Positions 25,211-31,668 of a stretch of 64,000 nt of DNA are shown piece by piece. The translations under genes were made by a program, and so were the position numbers. Origin of the DNA: Escherichia coli. Lineage in GTDB: Bacteria; Pseudomonadota; Gammaproteobacteria; Enterobacterales; Enterobacteriaceae. Every line of letters begins with the position of its first letter. Within the stretch, counting starts at the first letter, position 1. Under the pieces are notes generated by a model, which saw only the letters and a program-made list of their open reading frames with translations, was not told where the DNA came from and did not search any database. The stretch lies in assembly GCF_003790525.1 (NCBI RefSeq), contig NZ_CP033635.1; one strand, written 5' to 3'.

Positions 25211-26065
25211 TTAAATAGAGACTGCGGGTTGCAGACTGACTTTAATGTCAGCTGGTGTCGCGTAATAAGGCGCGGAGGTAATAAAAAGGCGAATGCCGCA
25301 GTCGAGGTAATTTTTGAGTGTTGTCAGATTAATTCCGCCGGTCAGAGCCAGCGTGCAGTGAGGAGCCAGCGACGGTGCTATTTGCGCAATTTCAGTTGCC
25401 TGTTGCGGATTAAATTTGTCGAGCTGAAGTACGTCTGGTTGCGCGCGTAACGCGGCGATTGCCTCTTTCGGCGTGTCGGCTTCAACAACTATTTTCTTCT
25501 CGGGTGCGTGGCGACGTAACTGATTGATTGCGCCTGACCAGTCCTGATTGTCATGAAGAAAATGACGGTGGTTGGCAAACAATAATATGGTTTCCGCACA
25601 TCCGGCACGATGAATCAGTCCTCCGGCAGCCAGAATTGCCTGCGAGGCCAGTAAGCGGGTGCCCGGAATTGCTTTTCGGGTGCAGGCGATATTGCCATCA
25701 GGGTAACGTTCACGAAGTAACGCCAGCATTTGAGCGAGATAATCAGAAACACCGCAACTCCACTCCAGCACATTCTGGACTGCCTTCCATCCCTGATGAA
25801 GTGCTGCGGCATTACCTTGCGCACGGATTAGCCGCTGACCCGCGTTCGCTTGTGAACCGTCGCTGACCGCGTTATCAATAGTTAATCCCAGCGTAGTTAA
25901 CATCTTACACGCGACAGAAATTCCGCTGACGCAGCCGCCCTGACGGTGAAAAAACTCTATATAGCCATGCTGGTGTCCAATATTTAATGCTCGCGTGGTC
26001 AGGTCACCGCCCTGGATATCTTCCAGAAGTAACGCATCGATTTGTGCCTGAGAAAGGAAAATCAT
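25211..26065 (-). CDS. ModD-like protein (quinolinate/nicotinate-nucleotide phosphoribosyltransferase family homolog)
   Basis: 284-aa ORF with type II PRTase-like sequence; family assignment from memory of ModD/QPRTase features. Confidence 0.6.
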   Translation of the reverse strand: MIFLSQAQIDALLLEDIQGGDLTTRALNIGHQHGYIEFFHRQGGCVSGISVACKMLTTLGLTIDNAVSDGSQANAGQRLIRAQGNAAALHQGWKAVQNVLEWSCGVSDYLAQMLALLRERYPDGNIACTRKAIPGTRLLASQAILAAGGLIHRAGCAETILLFANHRHFLHDNQDWSGAINQLRRHAPEKKIVVEADTPKEAIAALRAQPDVLQLDKFNPQQATEIAQIAPSLAPHCTLALTGGINLTTLKNYLDCGIRLFITSAPYYATPADIKVSLQPAVSI

Positions 26066-26874
26066 CGCAGTGCCTCTTGCGGTACGCTATCCCACCAGAT
26101 GAGCGCCCAGTCGCGGCTGGCAGGGGCGAGGGCACGAGCATCTTGTTGTTGATACCAGTGATATAACCGCTCACGCTCATCGTCGTTAAGCGCGCCAAGA
26201 CTCCAGCTGACGTTCTGCTCAAAACGTTCCCAGGTGCTGTTATCCTGTTGGCAATTTTGTCCACGGATAAAATCAACGTGGGCATAAATTCCCATCTGAT
26301 ACAGGACGTTGAGCGCAAATATATAGTTGGGTAATTCGATCACTTCCCGACCAGCCGCCCGCTGAATGGCTGGAGAGACGAACGAGGTGCTGACCAGATG
26401 AGTCGTATAGACGCGAAGCCGTGCCTGATTATTCAGTTTGCTCATTGCCTGGCGCATATCAGCCACCAGAGTGGAGCGGGAAGCCACGGCAATATCGCAG
26501 CGTGGCAGGTCACTCCAGTCCTCTTCCCAGGCGCGCTGGATCCAGTGGACATTGTCTGCCTTTAGCGCGGCGGCGCGACGGGCGGCAACGTTCAGCATCC
26601 CCTGACTGTAATCAACGCCATAAATCGTCGTGAGTTTGTCAGCCAGCGCCAGCGATACGGTACCCGGTCCGCAGCCCATATCGAATAAGGTTTGTGCGCC
26701 TTGCAGATCAATTTTAGCGGTCAGTTGTTGCAGGTAGCTGTCCGTAGGCGAGGCGCAATTTTCCGCCATTTTTTCCGCCCGTTGATCCCAGTGATCCGGC
26801 GTTTTTTCTGTGCGATGGGCCAGCCTGAGTTGCTGAAGGTAAAGGTCTGCAAAATCAATATCATCAATGAGCAT
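26062..26874 (-). CDS. Class I SAM-dependent methyltransferase
   Basis: 270-aa ORF with motif I FDMGCGPGTVS; stop overlaps the ModD-like start. Confidence 0.7.
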   Translation of the reverse strand: MLIDDIDFADLYLQQLRLAHRTEKTPDHWDQRAEKMAENCASPTDSYLQQLTAKIDLQGAQTLFDMGCGPGTVSLALADKLTTIYGVDYSQGMLNVAARRAAALKADNVHWIQRAWEEDWSDLPRCDIAVASRSTLVADMRQAMSKLNNQARLRVYTTHLVSTSFVSPAIQRAAGREVIELPNYIFALNVLYQMGIYAHVDFIRGQNCQQDNSTWERFEQNVSWSLGALNDDERERLYHWYQQQDARALAPASRDWALIWWDSVPQEALR

Positions 26875-26883
26875 GATTTTTCC

Positions 26884-27642
26884 TTAGTGCTTAATTGCAG
26901 AGAGGTGATGGTGAATCTGGTCGGCAGAAACCCGGTACAGGGCAGCCAGTTTTTTCGTTGTTAACTGTTCGGTCGGTAAGCCTTGTGTTACACGTCCATC
27001 TGGCTCTACCTGGATAATGCTGTCGGCAATGGCGTTGGCATGGAGCGGATGATGAGTCGACATTAACATTGTCATGCCGTTATTTTTGAGCTGCGCCAGC
27101 GTGTCCAGTAGTTGGATCTGATGACCGAAATCGAGGCTGGAGGCAGGCTCATCCAGTAATAACAAGCGCGGTTGCTGGACGAGTGCACGGGCGATTAAAG
27201 CCAGCTGACGTTCACCGCCGCTAAGCGTATTCCAGCGTCGTGTCGCCAGATGCAAAATGCCCAGCTTTTCCAGTTGCTCCGTTGCTTTCAGGCGTTCTTG
27301 CTTACCGGGAACGGAAAAAGCGCCTATGGTGGGGGCCAGGCCCATCAACACCATATCCAGCACACTAAAAGCAAAAATGCCGTCGTGCGCCTGCGGCACC
27401 CAGGCAATAGCCTGCGCGCGCTGGCGATGGCTGAGTGTCTGCACAGGGAGGCTATCCAGTAAGATCTCGCCTTTTAATAACGGTATAACGCCAAGAATGG
27501 AGCGCATGAGTGTGGTTTTGCCGCAACCATTGGCTCCTAACAGACAACAAATTGTTCCTTGCGACAGGGTGAAGGACACGTCGCGTAGCACCGGATGGCG
27601 GGAGTAACCCAGAGACGCATGACGGACGGCAAGCAAAGTCAC
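26884..27642 (-). CDS. ABC transporter ATP-binding protein (iron-chelate/FecE-BtuD type)
   Basis: Walker A GANGCGKTT, signature LSGGERQ, Walker B LLLDEP; start set at GTG (GGAGG RBS) overlapping the permease stop. Confidence 0.85.
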   Translation of the reverse strand: MTLLAVRHASLGYSRHPVLRDVSFTLSQGTICCLLGANGCGKTTLMRSILGVIPLLKGEILLDSLPVQTLSHRQRAQAIAWVPQAHDGIFAFSVLDMVLMGLAPTIGAFSVPGKQERLKATEQLEKLGILHLATRRWNTLSGGERQLALIARALVQQPRLLLLDEPASSLDFGHQIQLLDTLAQLKNNGMTMLMSTHHPLHANAIADSIIQVEPDGRVTQGLPTEQLTTKKLAALYRVSADQIHHHLSAIKH

Positions 27643-28619
27643 TGGCGACCTCCGCGTAACAACAAAAACAGGAAAAACGGTGCGCCAACAAAAGCGGTCA
27701 GAATGCCAAGTGGGATTTCTGTTGTTCCAATGCTGCGTGCCAGCGTATCGGTAAGCAGGAGCAGAATCGCGCCAGTACACATTGCCATGGGCAACAGCTG
27801 CTGATGGTTATGACCGGTCAACAAGCGGGCAATGTGCGGAACGACCAGGCCGACCCAACCAATTATGCCCGCTATTGCTACCGTGCTGGCGGTGATGAGT
27901 GTGGCGCAGACAATCAATCCAAAGCGCAGACGTGTCACGTTCAGTCCCAGCGAACGGGCTTCGTCGTCGGAAAGTGTGAGTAAATTCATGCGCCAGCGGA
28001 GAAAAAACAGGGGCAAGGAGCCTATGAGAATGATCGGTGCAGCATAGCAGAGATCGCGTAAGGTCACGGTGGACAGCCCCCCCAGCAACCAGAAGGTAAT
28101 TGACGGTAACTGGGTGTAAGGATCGGCCAGCGTTTTTATTAGCGATATCCCCGCTCCGCACAACGTGCCTAACGCAATACCTACCAGCACCAGGGTTAAG
28201 ATCGGATCGTGGCGGGTCACCCGACGCGTAATCAACCAGACGCCCGCGACCACCATCAGCCCGCCGCAAAATGCGTACAGCTGGATGTAAACAATGGATA
28301 ATCCCCACAGGATTGCCGCGCAGGCACCAAGTCCGGCACCGGCGGAGACGCCTAAAATATCCGGTGACACTAAGGGATTACGGAACATTCCCTGATAGGT
28401 GGTTCCAGCCCCTGCCAGCGCCGCGCCCAGAAACAGCGCAGCAAGAATACGCGGCACGCGGATTTGCCAGAAGACAATTTGTTCCTGCACAGGAACATTT
28501 TCTTGACGAAGAATGAGCGCCAGCAGTTGCTGCATATCGAGATGATAAGCCCCACTTACGGCGGCAAAAGTGATACTGATAGCTGCCAGCAGCAAAATAC
28601 ATCCGTTTACGGTTCTCAT
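27639..28619 (-). CDS. ABC transporter permease (FecCD/BtuC family)
   Basis: 326-aa polytopic membrane protein; start overlaps the binding-protein stop. Confidence 0.85.
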   Translation of the reverse strand: MRTVNGCILLLAAISITFAAVSGAYHLDMQQLLALILRQENVPVQEQIVFWQIRVPRILAALFLGAALAGAGTTYQGMFRNPLVSPDILGVSAGAGLGACAAILWGLSIVYIQLYAFCGGLMVVAGVWLITRRVTRHDPILTLVLVGIALGTLCGAGISLIKTLADPYTQLPSITFWLLGGLSTVTLRDLCYAAPIILIGSLPLFFLRWRMNLLTLSDDEARSLGLNVTRLRFGLIVCATLITASTVAIAGIIGWVGLVVPHIARLLTGHNHQQLLPMAMCTGAILLLLTDTLARSIGTTEIPLGILTAFVGAPFFLFLLLRGGRQ

Positions 28620-29641
28620 TAGCTCGCCACCAATTTTTGATAGTCGGCGTCACTGAGTGAACAATGCCAGAACAGTTGGGCGTAATGCTGCATGTCACTT
28701 TTAAACTGGCGATTGATGGCGGGATCCAGCCAGGCGTGAAGTCTGCGTAATCCCAGAAGACGGTTGATTCCCGGCGGGGCATCCAGCCAGCCAAAGGGCA
28801 GGCCACTTAAAAATAAGATGCGTTGTTCCGCAACCGCTTTCACGCCCTGCCAGAGAGGATCACGACGAATAAAATCTGCAGTAACGGCCTCCTGAACCAG
28901 AATAATATCCGGCTGCCAGCGCAGGAGATTTTCCATGGAAACCTGTGTCAGACCGTGGCGATCGGCTATTTGCGCGACGTTGTGCAAACCTAATAATTCC
29001 GCCGCCTCGGTATGCAACGAACCCTGTAAGCCCGTTTCCAGCCCTCGAGGACCGCGCGCAGCATAAAAGCTGAGGTTAGCGGCGGGTGAGGTGGCGAATG
29101 CCTGAGCTTCACCAACGAAGCGGCTGGCGAGATTGGCTTGTTCTGCGGCGCGGTGCTCTTCGCCTAACGTTTTGCCAAGCGTTGTTAACTGTTCTGCTGA
29201 TTGTTCCAGTTTCCCGTTAAGCAATAACCAGGGTATTTGTGTCTGTTCGCTAACCTGCCGTGCCTGGGAGATCCAGGTTTCATCCGTATTGCCGCAATCA
29301 ACGACCAAATCGGGATGTAACGCCATAAGCCCTTCCAGCGAGAGTGTGCTGGCGCGCCCGGCGAGTCGTCCCAGCCTGGGGAACTGGCGAATGTGCTCTG
29401 GCAATGGAATTAATGCCTGACGGGCAAAATCAAAAGAGGAAAAACCGACCATTTTTTCTGGCGCGACAGCCAGCAATAGTAAATCGGCGGGCGCGCCTGC
29501 GCTGACGATGCGTGTAATGTTTTGGGCTTCGGGAAGCGTCAGTGAGGACCAGAATTTGACTGATTGTGCAAAGGACGGCAGATGATGCAGGAACAATGTC
29601 GACGCAAGAATCTGTGTAAACCTCCGTCTGGTTAGTGACAT
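28619..29641 (-). CDS. Periplasmic substrate-binding protein (TroA/BtuF/FhuD-like) with Tat-like signal peptide
   Basis: Start set at internal ATG with RBS-like cagga; N-terminus MSLTRRRFTQILASTLFLHHLPSFAQ. Confidence 0.7.
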   Translation of the reverse strand: MSLTRRRFTQILASTLFLHHLPSFAQSVKFWSSLTLPEAQNITRIVSAGAPADLLLLAVAPEKMVGFSSFDFARQALIPLPEHIRQFPRLGRLAGRASTLSLEGLMALHPDLVVDCGNTDETWISQARQVSEQTQIPWLLLNGKLEQSAEQLTTLGKTLGEEHRAAEQANLASRFVGEAQAFATSPAANLSFYAARGPRGLETGLQGSLHTEAAELLGLHNVAQIADRHGLTQVSMENLLRWQPDIILVQEAVTADFIRRDPLWQGVKAVAEQRILFLSGLPFGWLDAPPGINRLLGLRRLHAWLDPAINRQFKSDMQHYAQLFWHCSLSDADYQKLVAS

Positions 29642-29970
29642 AAGTAATATCCTGATAATTAAAACCGCTATATACTTACACATATAGCGAAAAAGATCAT
29701 GTTTGATGTCAAAATTTGTCTAAAGAGACAGAATGATTTGCTTGTTTCTTAAATAACACTTTGTTCCACAAGAAAATTGTCAGGGAGAATGGGGAGTGGG
29801 GGAAAATATAAATAGAGGTGTAATGATTAACAAGTTGATAAAATAAAATTAAAATCTTCTCTAATAAAAGAAAATAAAGGCATAGACCGTAGAAAGAGTG
29901 GTATTTCGTGGTGAAGAAAGAGCAATGCCAATTTTATGCATGTAATGGCATTGCTCGATATACAGTAAAG

Positions 29971-31668
29971 TTAAGGCGTAGGTTCCGCCTCTTTTTGTTT
30001 TAGCGGCTGTGTTGTTGATTCACTGAGTGGACGCGTCGCCGGAACATTGTCACACGGTTGCTCTTTCGGGCAGATCAAATCCAGCATTTTCAGCGTCACG
30101 CCATTGGTCCAGCCAAAGCCATCCTGTAATGGATATTCGCCACCGCCGCCCCCTGTTCCGGTGGCGCTGACATCATATTTTTCCACCAGCTTTTTCTCCC
30201 GGTCATAGGTGTTCTGAACATTGGTCAGGAAGTGCCAGCTAATGTCCATCGCCACCTCTTTTTGCCCGTAGTTTTGTAATCCTTCTGTCGCGACCCACTG
30301 CAACGGTGCCCAGCCGTTTGGCGCATCCCATTGTTGTCCACTTTTCACCGACGTGGTGTTCAGGCCGCCGGGTTGCAGCAGATGTGTTTTCGTCGCCGTC
30401 GCCATTTTGCTGGCGCGATCTTTCGCTGCCGCATTGACGTACAGCGGGAACAGGGCGGCCGCGGTTAACTGATTGCGCACTTTATGACTTTTCAGGTCGT
30501 AATCGGCATACCAGCCTTGTTGATCGTTCCACAGGTATTTTTCGATCCCTTTTTGACGGGCATTCGCCAGCGTTTCGTACTGGTTTGCCATCGCGTTATC
30601 TCCGGCAGCTTTGCTGGCGCGGGCGAGGATTTTTTCCATTTTAAACATCAGGCTGTTCAGATCGACCGGTACGATGCTGGTGGTGCGTAAGGTATTTAAC
30701 TGCTGCGGATTGTCCATCCAGCGCGAGCTGAAATCCCAGCCAGACGCAGCGGCAGAGCGCAGATCGCGGTAAATTTCAGTGGCAGGTCGATTCGGATTGC
30801 TTTTGGCGGTGGCAATATCTTCCACCCATGACTCTGGTCGTGGCGTATCGCGATCGTCCCAGTAGCGGTTGAGAAGGGTACCATCCTGAAGTTTGACAAC
30901 GCGTTTTTCCTGTTGTCCGGCTTGCAGGTTTTCAACACCGTCCATCCAGTAAGCATATTCTTTTTGCATTTGCGGCAGGTATTGTTTCAACGCGGCATCG
31001 CCTTCATGCTGCGCCAGTAACTCTACCATCAGGGCAAAGAAGGGCGGCTGCGAGCGGCTTAAATAGTAACTGCGGTTGCCGTTGGGAATATGACCGTAAG
31101 TGTCTATTTCATGAGCAAAATTGGCCACCATATCCGCGACTTTATCCCAGTGACCGCTTTCGGCAAGTCCTAACATGGTGAAGTAACTGTCCCAGTAATA
31201 TACCTCGCGAAAACGTCCGCCCGGCACGACATAAGGTTCCGGCAGCGGTAACAGAGAATCCCATTTTTCGGTATTTTCGGTAGCACGCGTTAATACCGGC
31301 CAAAGTCCGTCAATATGTTCGCGCAGTGACTGCCCCTCTGGCGGAACATATTTCTCGCCCTCTTTTGGCAGGGTGAAATTGACGTTAACGAAATGGCGCA
31401 GATCAAATCCGCTCTGGTTTTGCTGCATCCGATAATCAGCAAGGATCATCAGCGGATCGCTGTTCGGCACGGCATCGGCAAAGGTTTTTTGGTCCGGAAA
31501 AAGTTTGGCGTTTTGCACATCATTAAACAGCGGCCCTAATAAAATATCAGGCGGCTGTGGCGTTACCGATGTTTCTTCTGCCTGCACCGATAGCGCAGCA
31601 AAACACAAAAAGATGCAGGCTGGAATTAACGCCATTTTTTGCGGGCGAGAAGGGGTGGGGGATTTCAT
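29971..31668 (-). CDS. treA: Periplasmic trehalase
   Basis: 565-aa [24 protein letters not shown]...; matches TreA. Confidence 0.95.

Follow-up and report, generated by a model that had tools for sequence, protein, structure and literature searches.

A predicted twin-arginine signal on the binding protein of a six-gene Escherichia coli uptake cassette behind a conserved ModE-like operator

By which route is the substrate-binding protein of an uptake cassette found in many Escherichia coli strains exported, and does that route say anything about what the protein carries? The question is raised by a 64,000-nucleotide stretch of E. coli contig NZ_CP033635.1 (assembly GCF_003790525.1; hereafter the window), in which six tightly packed genes lie on the minus strand between treA and ymgE, the first of them (28619..29641) encoding a periplasmic binding protein. 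Based on the sequence alone, an original prediction had pointed out that the N-terminus of this protein resembles a twin-arginine translocation (Tat) signal, and had proposed that Tat export, being unusual for the binding proteins of ATP-binding cassette (ABC) importers, may hint at a bound cofactor. The joint explanation that best accounts for our results, to which we assign a probability of about 0.72, is a Tat-signal binding protein belonging to a six-gene uptake cassette that lies behind a conserved ModE-type operator. As judged in silico, the Tat signal itself is likely to be genuine; the proposed link to a cofactor was not supported.

The open reading frame (ORF) of the binding protein runs from an ATG at 29641-29639 to a stop codon ending at 28619 and encodes 340 amino acids, of which the first read MSLTRRRFTQILASTLFLHHLPSFAQSVKF, the signal portion being MSLTRRRFTQILASTLFLHHLPSFA followed by Q. 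An identical start is annotated for the RefSeq protein WP_000060153.1 (1023 nt, ‘iron ABC transporter substrate-binding protein’), and a Shine-Dalgarno-like AGGA is located 8 nt 5' of the ATG (29650..29653, minus strand), with identical spacing in Citrobacter. The N-terminus, start codon and ribosome-binding-site-like AGGA quoted in the original prediction were thus borne out. The 1.4 kb surrounding the gene are 100% identical to E. coli SMS-3-5, and a Pfam search assigned its product to Peripla_BP_2 (PF01497, E = 8e-17). A longer ORF, starting from ATG 29683 (MCKYIAVLIIRILL...), was also considered and found not to be credible, given that its ATG sits within a palindrome (CGCTATAT-N8-ATATAGCG) described below, and that homologues from other genera mostly begin three to four residues ahead of the RR pair. 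As this ATG (29681-29683) opens the longest ORF, it is a source of start-site ambiguity in databases. Some database gene calls, of 323-325 amino acids (P0272, P0273), begin at Leu16 or Leu18 and drop the signal peptide, an implausible outcome for a binding protein that has to reach the periplasm. In some sources the protein is named ‘ABC transporter ATP-binding protein’.

The candidate Tat motif comprises residues T4-R5-R6-R7-F8-T9-Q10 (29612..29632, minus strand), with R5R6 designated the functional pair from homologue conservation and matrix scoring. Its RRRFT fits the default TatP pattern, RR.[FGAVML][LITMVF]. Since this pattern also matches ~7% of Gram-negative signals of the general secretory (Sec) type (PMC1182353), a match in a single sequence is weak evidence, and the figure counts in favour of an ordinary Sec signal, in which the arginines would supply n-region charge only and the protein would pass unfolded through SecYEG. 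Conservation bears directly on this alternative. Among the 120 best matches from a search of 5.8 billion proteins we obtained 84 distinct full-length N-termini of close homologues (~50% identity or more), and [ST]-R-R-x-[FL]-[ALI]-Q was found at the equivalent position in 83 of them. The lone exception has KKR, and two further seeming exceptions are gene calls beginning at the Met of TRRMF. Mere charge would allow lysine and arginine to be exchanged and the flanking residues to drift, yet R-R is fixed in 83/84 N-termini, and both the [ST] before the pair and the F/L two residues after it are also kept. The arginine codons meanwhile differ among genera: E. coli and Citrobacter use AGA CGG, Serratia uses CGT CGT, Shewanella CGT CGC, Providencia CGT AGA and a metagenomic relative AGA CGT. 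This indicates that selection acts on the residues and not on the nucleotides. The check on RR conservation in homologues that had been proposed with the original prediction was therefore clearly positive.

Beyond the close homologues, some distant family members carry the textbook motifs NRRQFLK or NRRSFLK. In a family-wide survey of 50%-identity cluster representatives, counting those with a Tat motif followed by an uncharged stretch, the motif was present in 22/29 representatives at >=40% identity to the query, 6/25 at 35-40% and 4/50 at 30-35%, with Sec-type and lipoprotein signals predominating in this last group. Being frequent at >=40% identity and rare at 30-35%, the predicted Tat signal has been inherited within this binding-protein subfamily and does not characterise the family as a whole.

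Scoring of the signal itself gave a consistent picture. The query was scored in both registers with a log-odds matrix derived from 25 E. coli Tat signals (PMC7549933), giving 14.0 bits for R5R6 and -11.1 bits for R6R7; in leave-one-out controls the Tat signals ranged from 4.8 to 23.8 bits (median 16.6), while the best of 31 Sec signals, a hand-assembled set that includes NikA with its chance RR, reached 5.5 bits. The predicted signal peptide spans 25 residues (29567..29641, minus strand) and consists of an n-region, MSL, followed by T-R-R-R-F-T-Q, the short, weakly hydrophobic core ILASTLFL and then HH, with a signal peptidase I site inferred between SFA and Q26 that fits the -3/-1 rule by eye. 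Over 12 and 15 residues its h-region is less hydrophobic than those of Sec signals, with Kyte-Doolittle maxima of 1.23 and 1.24, compared to 2.29±0.35 and 1.98±0.33 for the Sec set and 1.68±0.39 and 1.46±0.32 for the Tat set. These values lie ~3 and ~2 standard deviations under the Sec set, and either overlap the Tat set or fall beneath it. Furthermore, a lysine or arginine occurs late in the h/c region in 50/83 homologue signals, a feature typical of Tat Sec-avoidance and avoided by Sec signals. Together with the TatP pattern and the conservation described above, the matrix score bears out the proposed resemblance of the N-terminus to a twin-arginine signal.

A number of observations weigh against this interpretation, several of them in favour of an ordinary Sec signal. 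Comparisons with the Sec set carry the caveat that it was assembled by hand. The best 8-residue window of the core, ILASTLFL, has a hydropathy of 2.38, which is inside the Sec range, and the core of the Sec-exported TonB receptor encoded in the same operon is equally weak, such that hydrophobicity alone does not discriminate. At 25 residues the signal is short compared to a mean of 33 in the E. coli Tat set, and only three residues precede the twin-arginine motif. The E. coli allele also lacks a basic c-region residue (K/R), having His-His instead. The Pfam and TIGRFAM-type Tat models PF10518 (TAT_signal) and TIGR01409 gave no match to the binding protein even at E <= 10; however, when the same tool was applied to the known signals of TorA, SufI and FhuD, TorA gave no match and SufI, at 15.8 bits, stayed short of the cut-off of 22.7, and because of this insensitivity the silent hidden Markov models (HMMs) were given no weight. 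Nor is the protein among the 25 Tat substrates listed, on the basis of TatP, for the extraintestinal pathogenic E. coli (ExPEC) strain PCN033, a genome for which presence of the gene was not established. RR motifs are moreover known to give false positives, for example in Bacillus subtilis, and clear Sec-type signals occur on some related cassette proteins. Weighed against the fixed motif, a matrix score of 14.0 bits where no Sec signal exceeds 5.5, and the weak 12- and 15-residue hydropathy, these points leave an ordinary Sec signal unlikely.

The lack of a basic Sec-avoidance residue in the c-region of the E. coli signal, alongside a canonical RR motif and a moderately hydrophobic 8-residue core, is also what might be expected of a promiscuous signal, for which folding speed and translocase load would decide between Tat and Sec. 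In reporter assays, some E. coli signals with a Tat motif can indeed direct export along both routes. That the complete motif is conserved, on the other hand, shows selection on Tat recognition, and we regard dual routing as quite unlikely. Under the favoured Tat route, the binding protein would fold in the cytoplasm, TatBC would recognise the RR motif through the pair R5R6, and TatABC would carry the folded protein over the inner membrane, whereupon LepB would remove the signal by cleavage after Ala25 to leave a mature protein of ~315 residues. The mature protein would then be handed its ligand by the TonB-dependent receptor before docking on the type II ABC importer. Such use of Tat may be explained most simply by rapid cytoplasmic folding or incompatibility with Sec.

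Several known Tat signals can be set beside this one. FhuD of E. coli and Salmonella (signal MSGLPLISRRRLLTAMALSPLLWQMNTAQA) has been entered among the Tat substrates of both organisms, belongs to the same Pfam family, Peripla_BP_2, likewise partners a TonB-dependent receptor and a type II ABC importer, and has an SRRR-type twin-arginine motif. It differs in belonging to another subfamily, being absent from the sequence and fold matches to the binding protein, and in serving an iron system, whereas the operon studied here has a ModE-like operator, ModD and a methyltransferase. FepB of Pseudomonas aeruginosa (PA4159; signal MPTRRRSALPLLALALSLFATLAAA) is a siderophore-type binding protein that also has a 25-residue signal with T-R-R-R near the N-terminus, and is listed among validated Tat substrates (‘this work’, signal-peptide reporter) with cofactor ‘none predicted’ (PMC6085387). 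FepB is part of an enterobactin system, and its RRRSAL departs from the consensus, scoring 0.6 bits on the E. coli matrix; the signal studied here fits the Tat consensus much better. Very similar at its start is the signal of E. coli SufI/FtsP (MSLSRRQFIQASGIALCAGAVPLKASA), with MSLSRRQFIQA compared to MSLTRRRFTQI here and a length of 27 compared to 25 residues. SufI is a cofactor-free Tat substrate, but its mature part is multicopper-oxidase-like and unrelated to the binding protein, and its c-region has a Lys, where the present signal has an earlier His-His and no basic c-region residue.

With the route of export most likely assigned, we considered whether it carries information on a cofactor. 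An AlphaFold (AF2) model of the binding protein (predicted local distance difference test score, pLDDT, 91.3) has a two-lobe cluster-A fold with no additional domain. A helix at residues 5-18 is followed by a lower-confidence, non-regular stretch up to a strand at 29-32, and a long helix spans residues 162-183. The top matches listed from the Protein Data Bank (PDB) are all binding proteins of the cluster A class. On the grounds of the PF01497 match, the two-lobe model with its long helix, and a permease gene overlapping the stop codon, the protein is, as modelled, an ordinary cluster A (class III) binding protein of a type II ABC importer. Its closest solved relative is 4PAG, an uncharacterised protein of Sulfurospirillum deleyianum (E = 8.9e-26, 26% identity, template modelling (TM) score 0.78), but as a structural-genomics entry named without a function it is of no help on ligand or export route. 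MolA of Haemophilus influenzae (HI1472, 3psa) was matched at E = 1.2e-7 and is the third-best fold match at about 20% identity; the two sequences align well only over residues 214-287.

Export of a protein pre-loaded with a cofactor is the alternative that the original prediction had in mind; pre-loading with a cytoplasmic ligand, for example a small chelator that the methyltransferase and ModD would synthesize, may be counted with it. In its favour, 19/28 of the Tat substrates of K-12 bind cofactors (PMC6085387), the operon encodes two cytoplasmic enzymes without an assigned role, and the subfamily shows strong conservation of the Tat motif. The model, however, is that of a plain binding-protein fold with no extra domain, and no Tat-proofreading chaperone gene is present among the annotated genes of the operon. 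FhuD, which is on Tat lists, is not known to carry a cofactor. One third of K-12 Tat substrates are without one, and none is predicted for the Tat-targeted FepB of P. aeruginosa (PMC6085387). Within syntenic cassettes, two related proteins carry signals of plain Sec type, namely P0132 (40% identity), encoded behind the gene for a TonB-dependent receptor, and P0150 (35% identity), whose gene precedes those for a permease, an ATPase and a methyltransferase. Conversely, a Shewanella cassette without modD retains the RR signal. Pre-loading is therefore highly improbable. Because the subfamily trait is comparable to the Tat signals of FhuD in E. coli and FepB in P. aeruginosa, a Tat signal alone need not mean a cofactor, and the suggested hint at one is not supported by the plain fold, the cofactor-free precedents or the Sec-type syntenic relatives. 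The related statement that Tat export is unusual for binding proteins holds among those of E. coli K-12, but not in bacteria generally. For Achromobacter xylosoxidans, at least seven of the putative Tat substrates listed as expressed are binding proteins.

An indication of the cargo comes from the region upstream of the gene. The palindrome introduced above extends to a ModE-operator-like TTCGCTATATG-N6-TATATAGCGGT (29664..29691, no strand assigned; core 29666-29689) and ends 24 nt from the binding-protein start codon. It agrees with the E. coli ModE consensus, ATCGNTATATA-N6-TATATANCGAT (PMC545781), at 17/20 specified positions. In the 64-kb window it is the sole match at <=3 mismatches, and none of 100 shuffles gave any. 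In K-12, the sequence CGTTATAT-N8-ACATAACG has a like architecture and position; it stops 19 nt short of modA and is taken here as the ModE operator. Counting over six loci including E. coli (L008, L010 and L011 were too short and were left out), the palindrome was found with <=2 mismatches just 5' of the orthologous gene in every case, the loci other than E. coli being those of Citrobacter, Serratia fonticola, Shewanella fodinae, Providencia and the metagenomic relative. In four of these loci (Serratia, Shewanella, Providencia and the metagenomic relative) a second ModE-like palindrome adjoins the start of the receptor gene, lying just upstream of it at L004 12491-12514, L005 11752-11775 and L006 12579-12602, and just inside the called start at L007 12519-12542. 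E. coli and Citrobacter lack this second palindrome, and the gap between modD and the receptor gene is ~25 nt there. No further matches occurred in any locus, with 0.19 expected per shuffled 17-kb locus. In addition, a ModE-family gene (L007 11622-12437) occupies the usual place of modD in the metagenomic cassette (40% identity); its product contains a ModE-repressor domain scoring 95.4 bits, just below the cut-off of 98.5, plus two Mop domains.

Other readings of the upstream region were less compatible with these data. A scan had flagged the palindrome as terminator-like, a reading that we rejected in view of its AT-rich stem (3 GC pairs), its distance of 280 nt past the treA stop, and the retention of the ModE half-sites in loci with different upstream genes. 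No convincing Fur box was found, the best match to GATAATGATAATCATTATC in 29642-29970 being 13/19, compared to a background in the window of 27 sites with 13 matches and two with 14. An Rfam scan of 22500-30500 identified no riboswitch (molybdenum cofactor (Moco), cobalamin or other), with one sub-threshold chance match only. A perfect TTGACA (29707..29712, minus strand), with 17 nt between it and the left arm of the palindrome downstream, is a possible -35 hexamer, but the promoter scan reported no promoter there and no good -10 hexamer lies at 16-18 nt; with this hexamer as the -35, the operator would cover the -10/+1 region. Separately, a perfect 11-nt inverted repeat (GAGCAATGCCA / TGGCATTGCTC, 15 nt apart) at 29920-29956, just past the treA stop, is probably the treA terminator, and would separate treA from the uptake operon.

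A precedent for molybdenum-linked uptake of this type exists in Haemophilus influenzae, where MolABC-ModD combines a cluster-A binding protein and a type II importer, encoded next to modD, and is linked to molybdate/tungstate uptake; as described, that cluster has no TonB-dependent receptor and no methyltransferase. Taken together, the conserved operator, the ModE-family gene of the metagenomic cassette and the H. influenzae precedent suggest that the operon is probably repressed by molybdate-ModE and that a molybdenum or tungsten species, not iron, is its probable cargo. In the corresponding mechanism, ModE with molybdate would act through the palindrome at 29664-29691.

The remaining five genes of the operon all lie on the minus strand. 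The gene for a FecCD/BtuC-type permease (27639..28619) follows that of the binding protein, its ATG overlapping the preceding stop codon (TAATG, 28617-28621), and is succeeded by genes for an ABC ATPase (26884..27642; ‘fepC’ of the ExPEC literature), a class I S-adenosylmethionine (SAM)-dependent methyltransferase (26062..26874; probably ‘yc73’, as assigned by gene order), and ModD, a quinolinate phosphoribosyltransferase (QPRTase)-like protein (25211..26065; TIGR01334, 500.7 bits) with PDB matches only to QPRTases. Last is the gene for the TonB-dependent outer-membrane receptor, ‘prrA’ (23215..25185), a RefSeq coding sequence with plug and barrel domains. Overlaps of 4 nt were also noted between the permease and ATPase genes and between the methyltransferase gene and modD; along with the TAATG stop/start overlap, these suggest translational coupling along the operon. 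Comparison with the PDB gave no close solved relative for the receptor, the methyltransferase or ModD. In Serratia fonticola a MOSC-domain gene (YiiM-like; L004 14556-15197) lies right after the cassette, which may be coincidence; its best match, below the cut-off, was to 6-hydroxyaminopurine reductase. MOSC domains are linked to molybdenum-cofactor enzymes.

The cassette was identified in 2148/5426 complete E. coli genomes, including O157:H7 and ExPEC. In K-12 MG1655 (L009, 1244000-1249500) the six genes are missing, and ycgY alone occupies the interval between ymgE and treA that corresponds to 23215-29970 of the window; absence of the binding protein from classical Tat lists is explained by absence of the cassette from K-12. 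The cluster corresponds to ‘prrA-modD-yc73-fepC’ of the uropathogenic E. coli (UPEC) strain CFT073 and to O-island 55 / S-loop 83 of O157:H7, and has been described merely as possibly involved in iron uptake (PMC12928451, PMC1890555). Since about 2001 it has figured in publications as a putative iron system. Our literature search found no TonB-dependent molybdate receptor and no functional study of the cluster, which is not proof of absence.

On its own, the predicted Tat signal adds one more strain-variable candidate to the list of E. coli Tat substrates, and would make the protein a further cofactor-free binding protein using Tat. The regulatory context matters more, in that a cluster annotated for iron is preceded by a conserved ModE operator, with no Fur box above background. 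We tentatively propose that the cluster may be a ModE-repressed, TonB-dependent molybdenum/tungsten pathway, taking up an oxyanion or a chelate that is processed by ModD and the methyltransferase, with a Tat-exported binding protein as its hallmark. If true, this would constitute a second, outer-membrane-gated molybdenum route in Enterobacteriaceae beside ModABC, and a TonB-dependent molybdenum/tungsten route in enterobacteria of a kind not described in the literature examined; tat mutants of carrier strains would then lose a molybdenum-linked uptake function.

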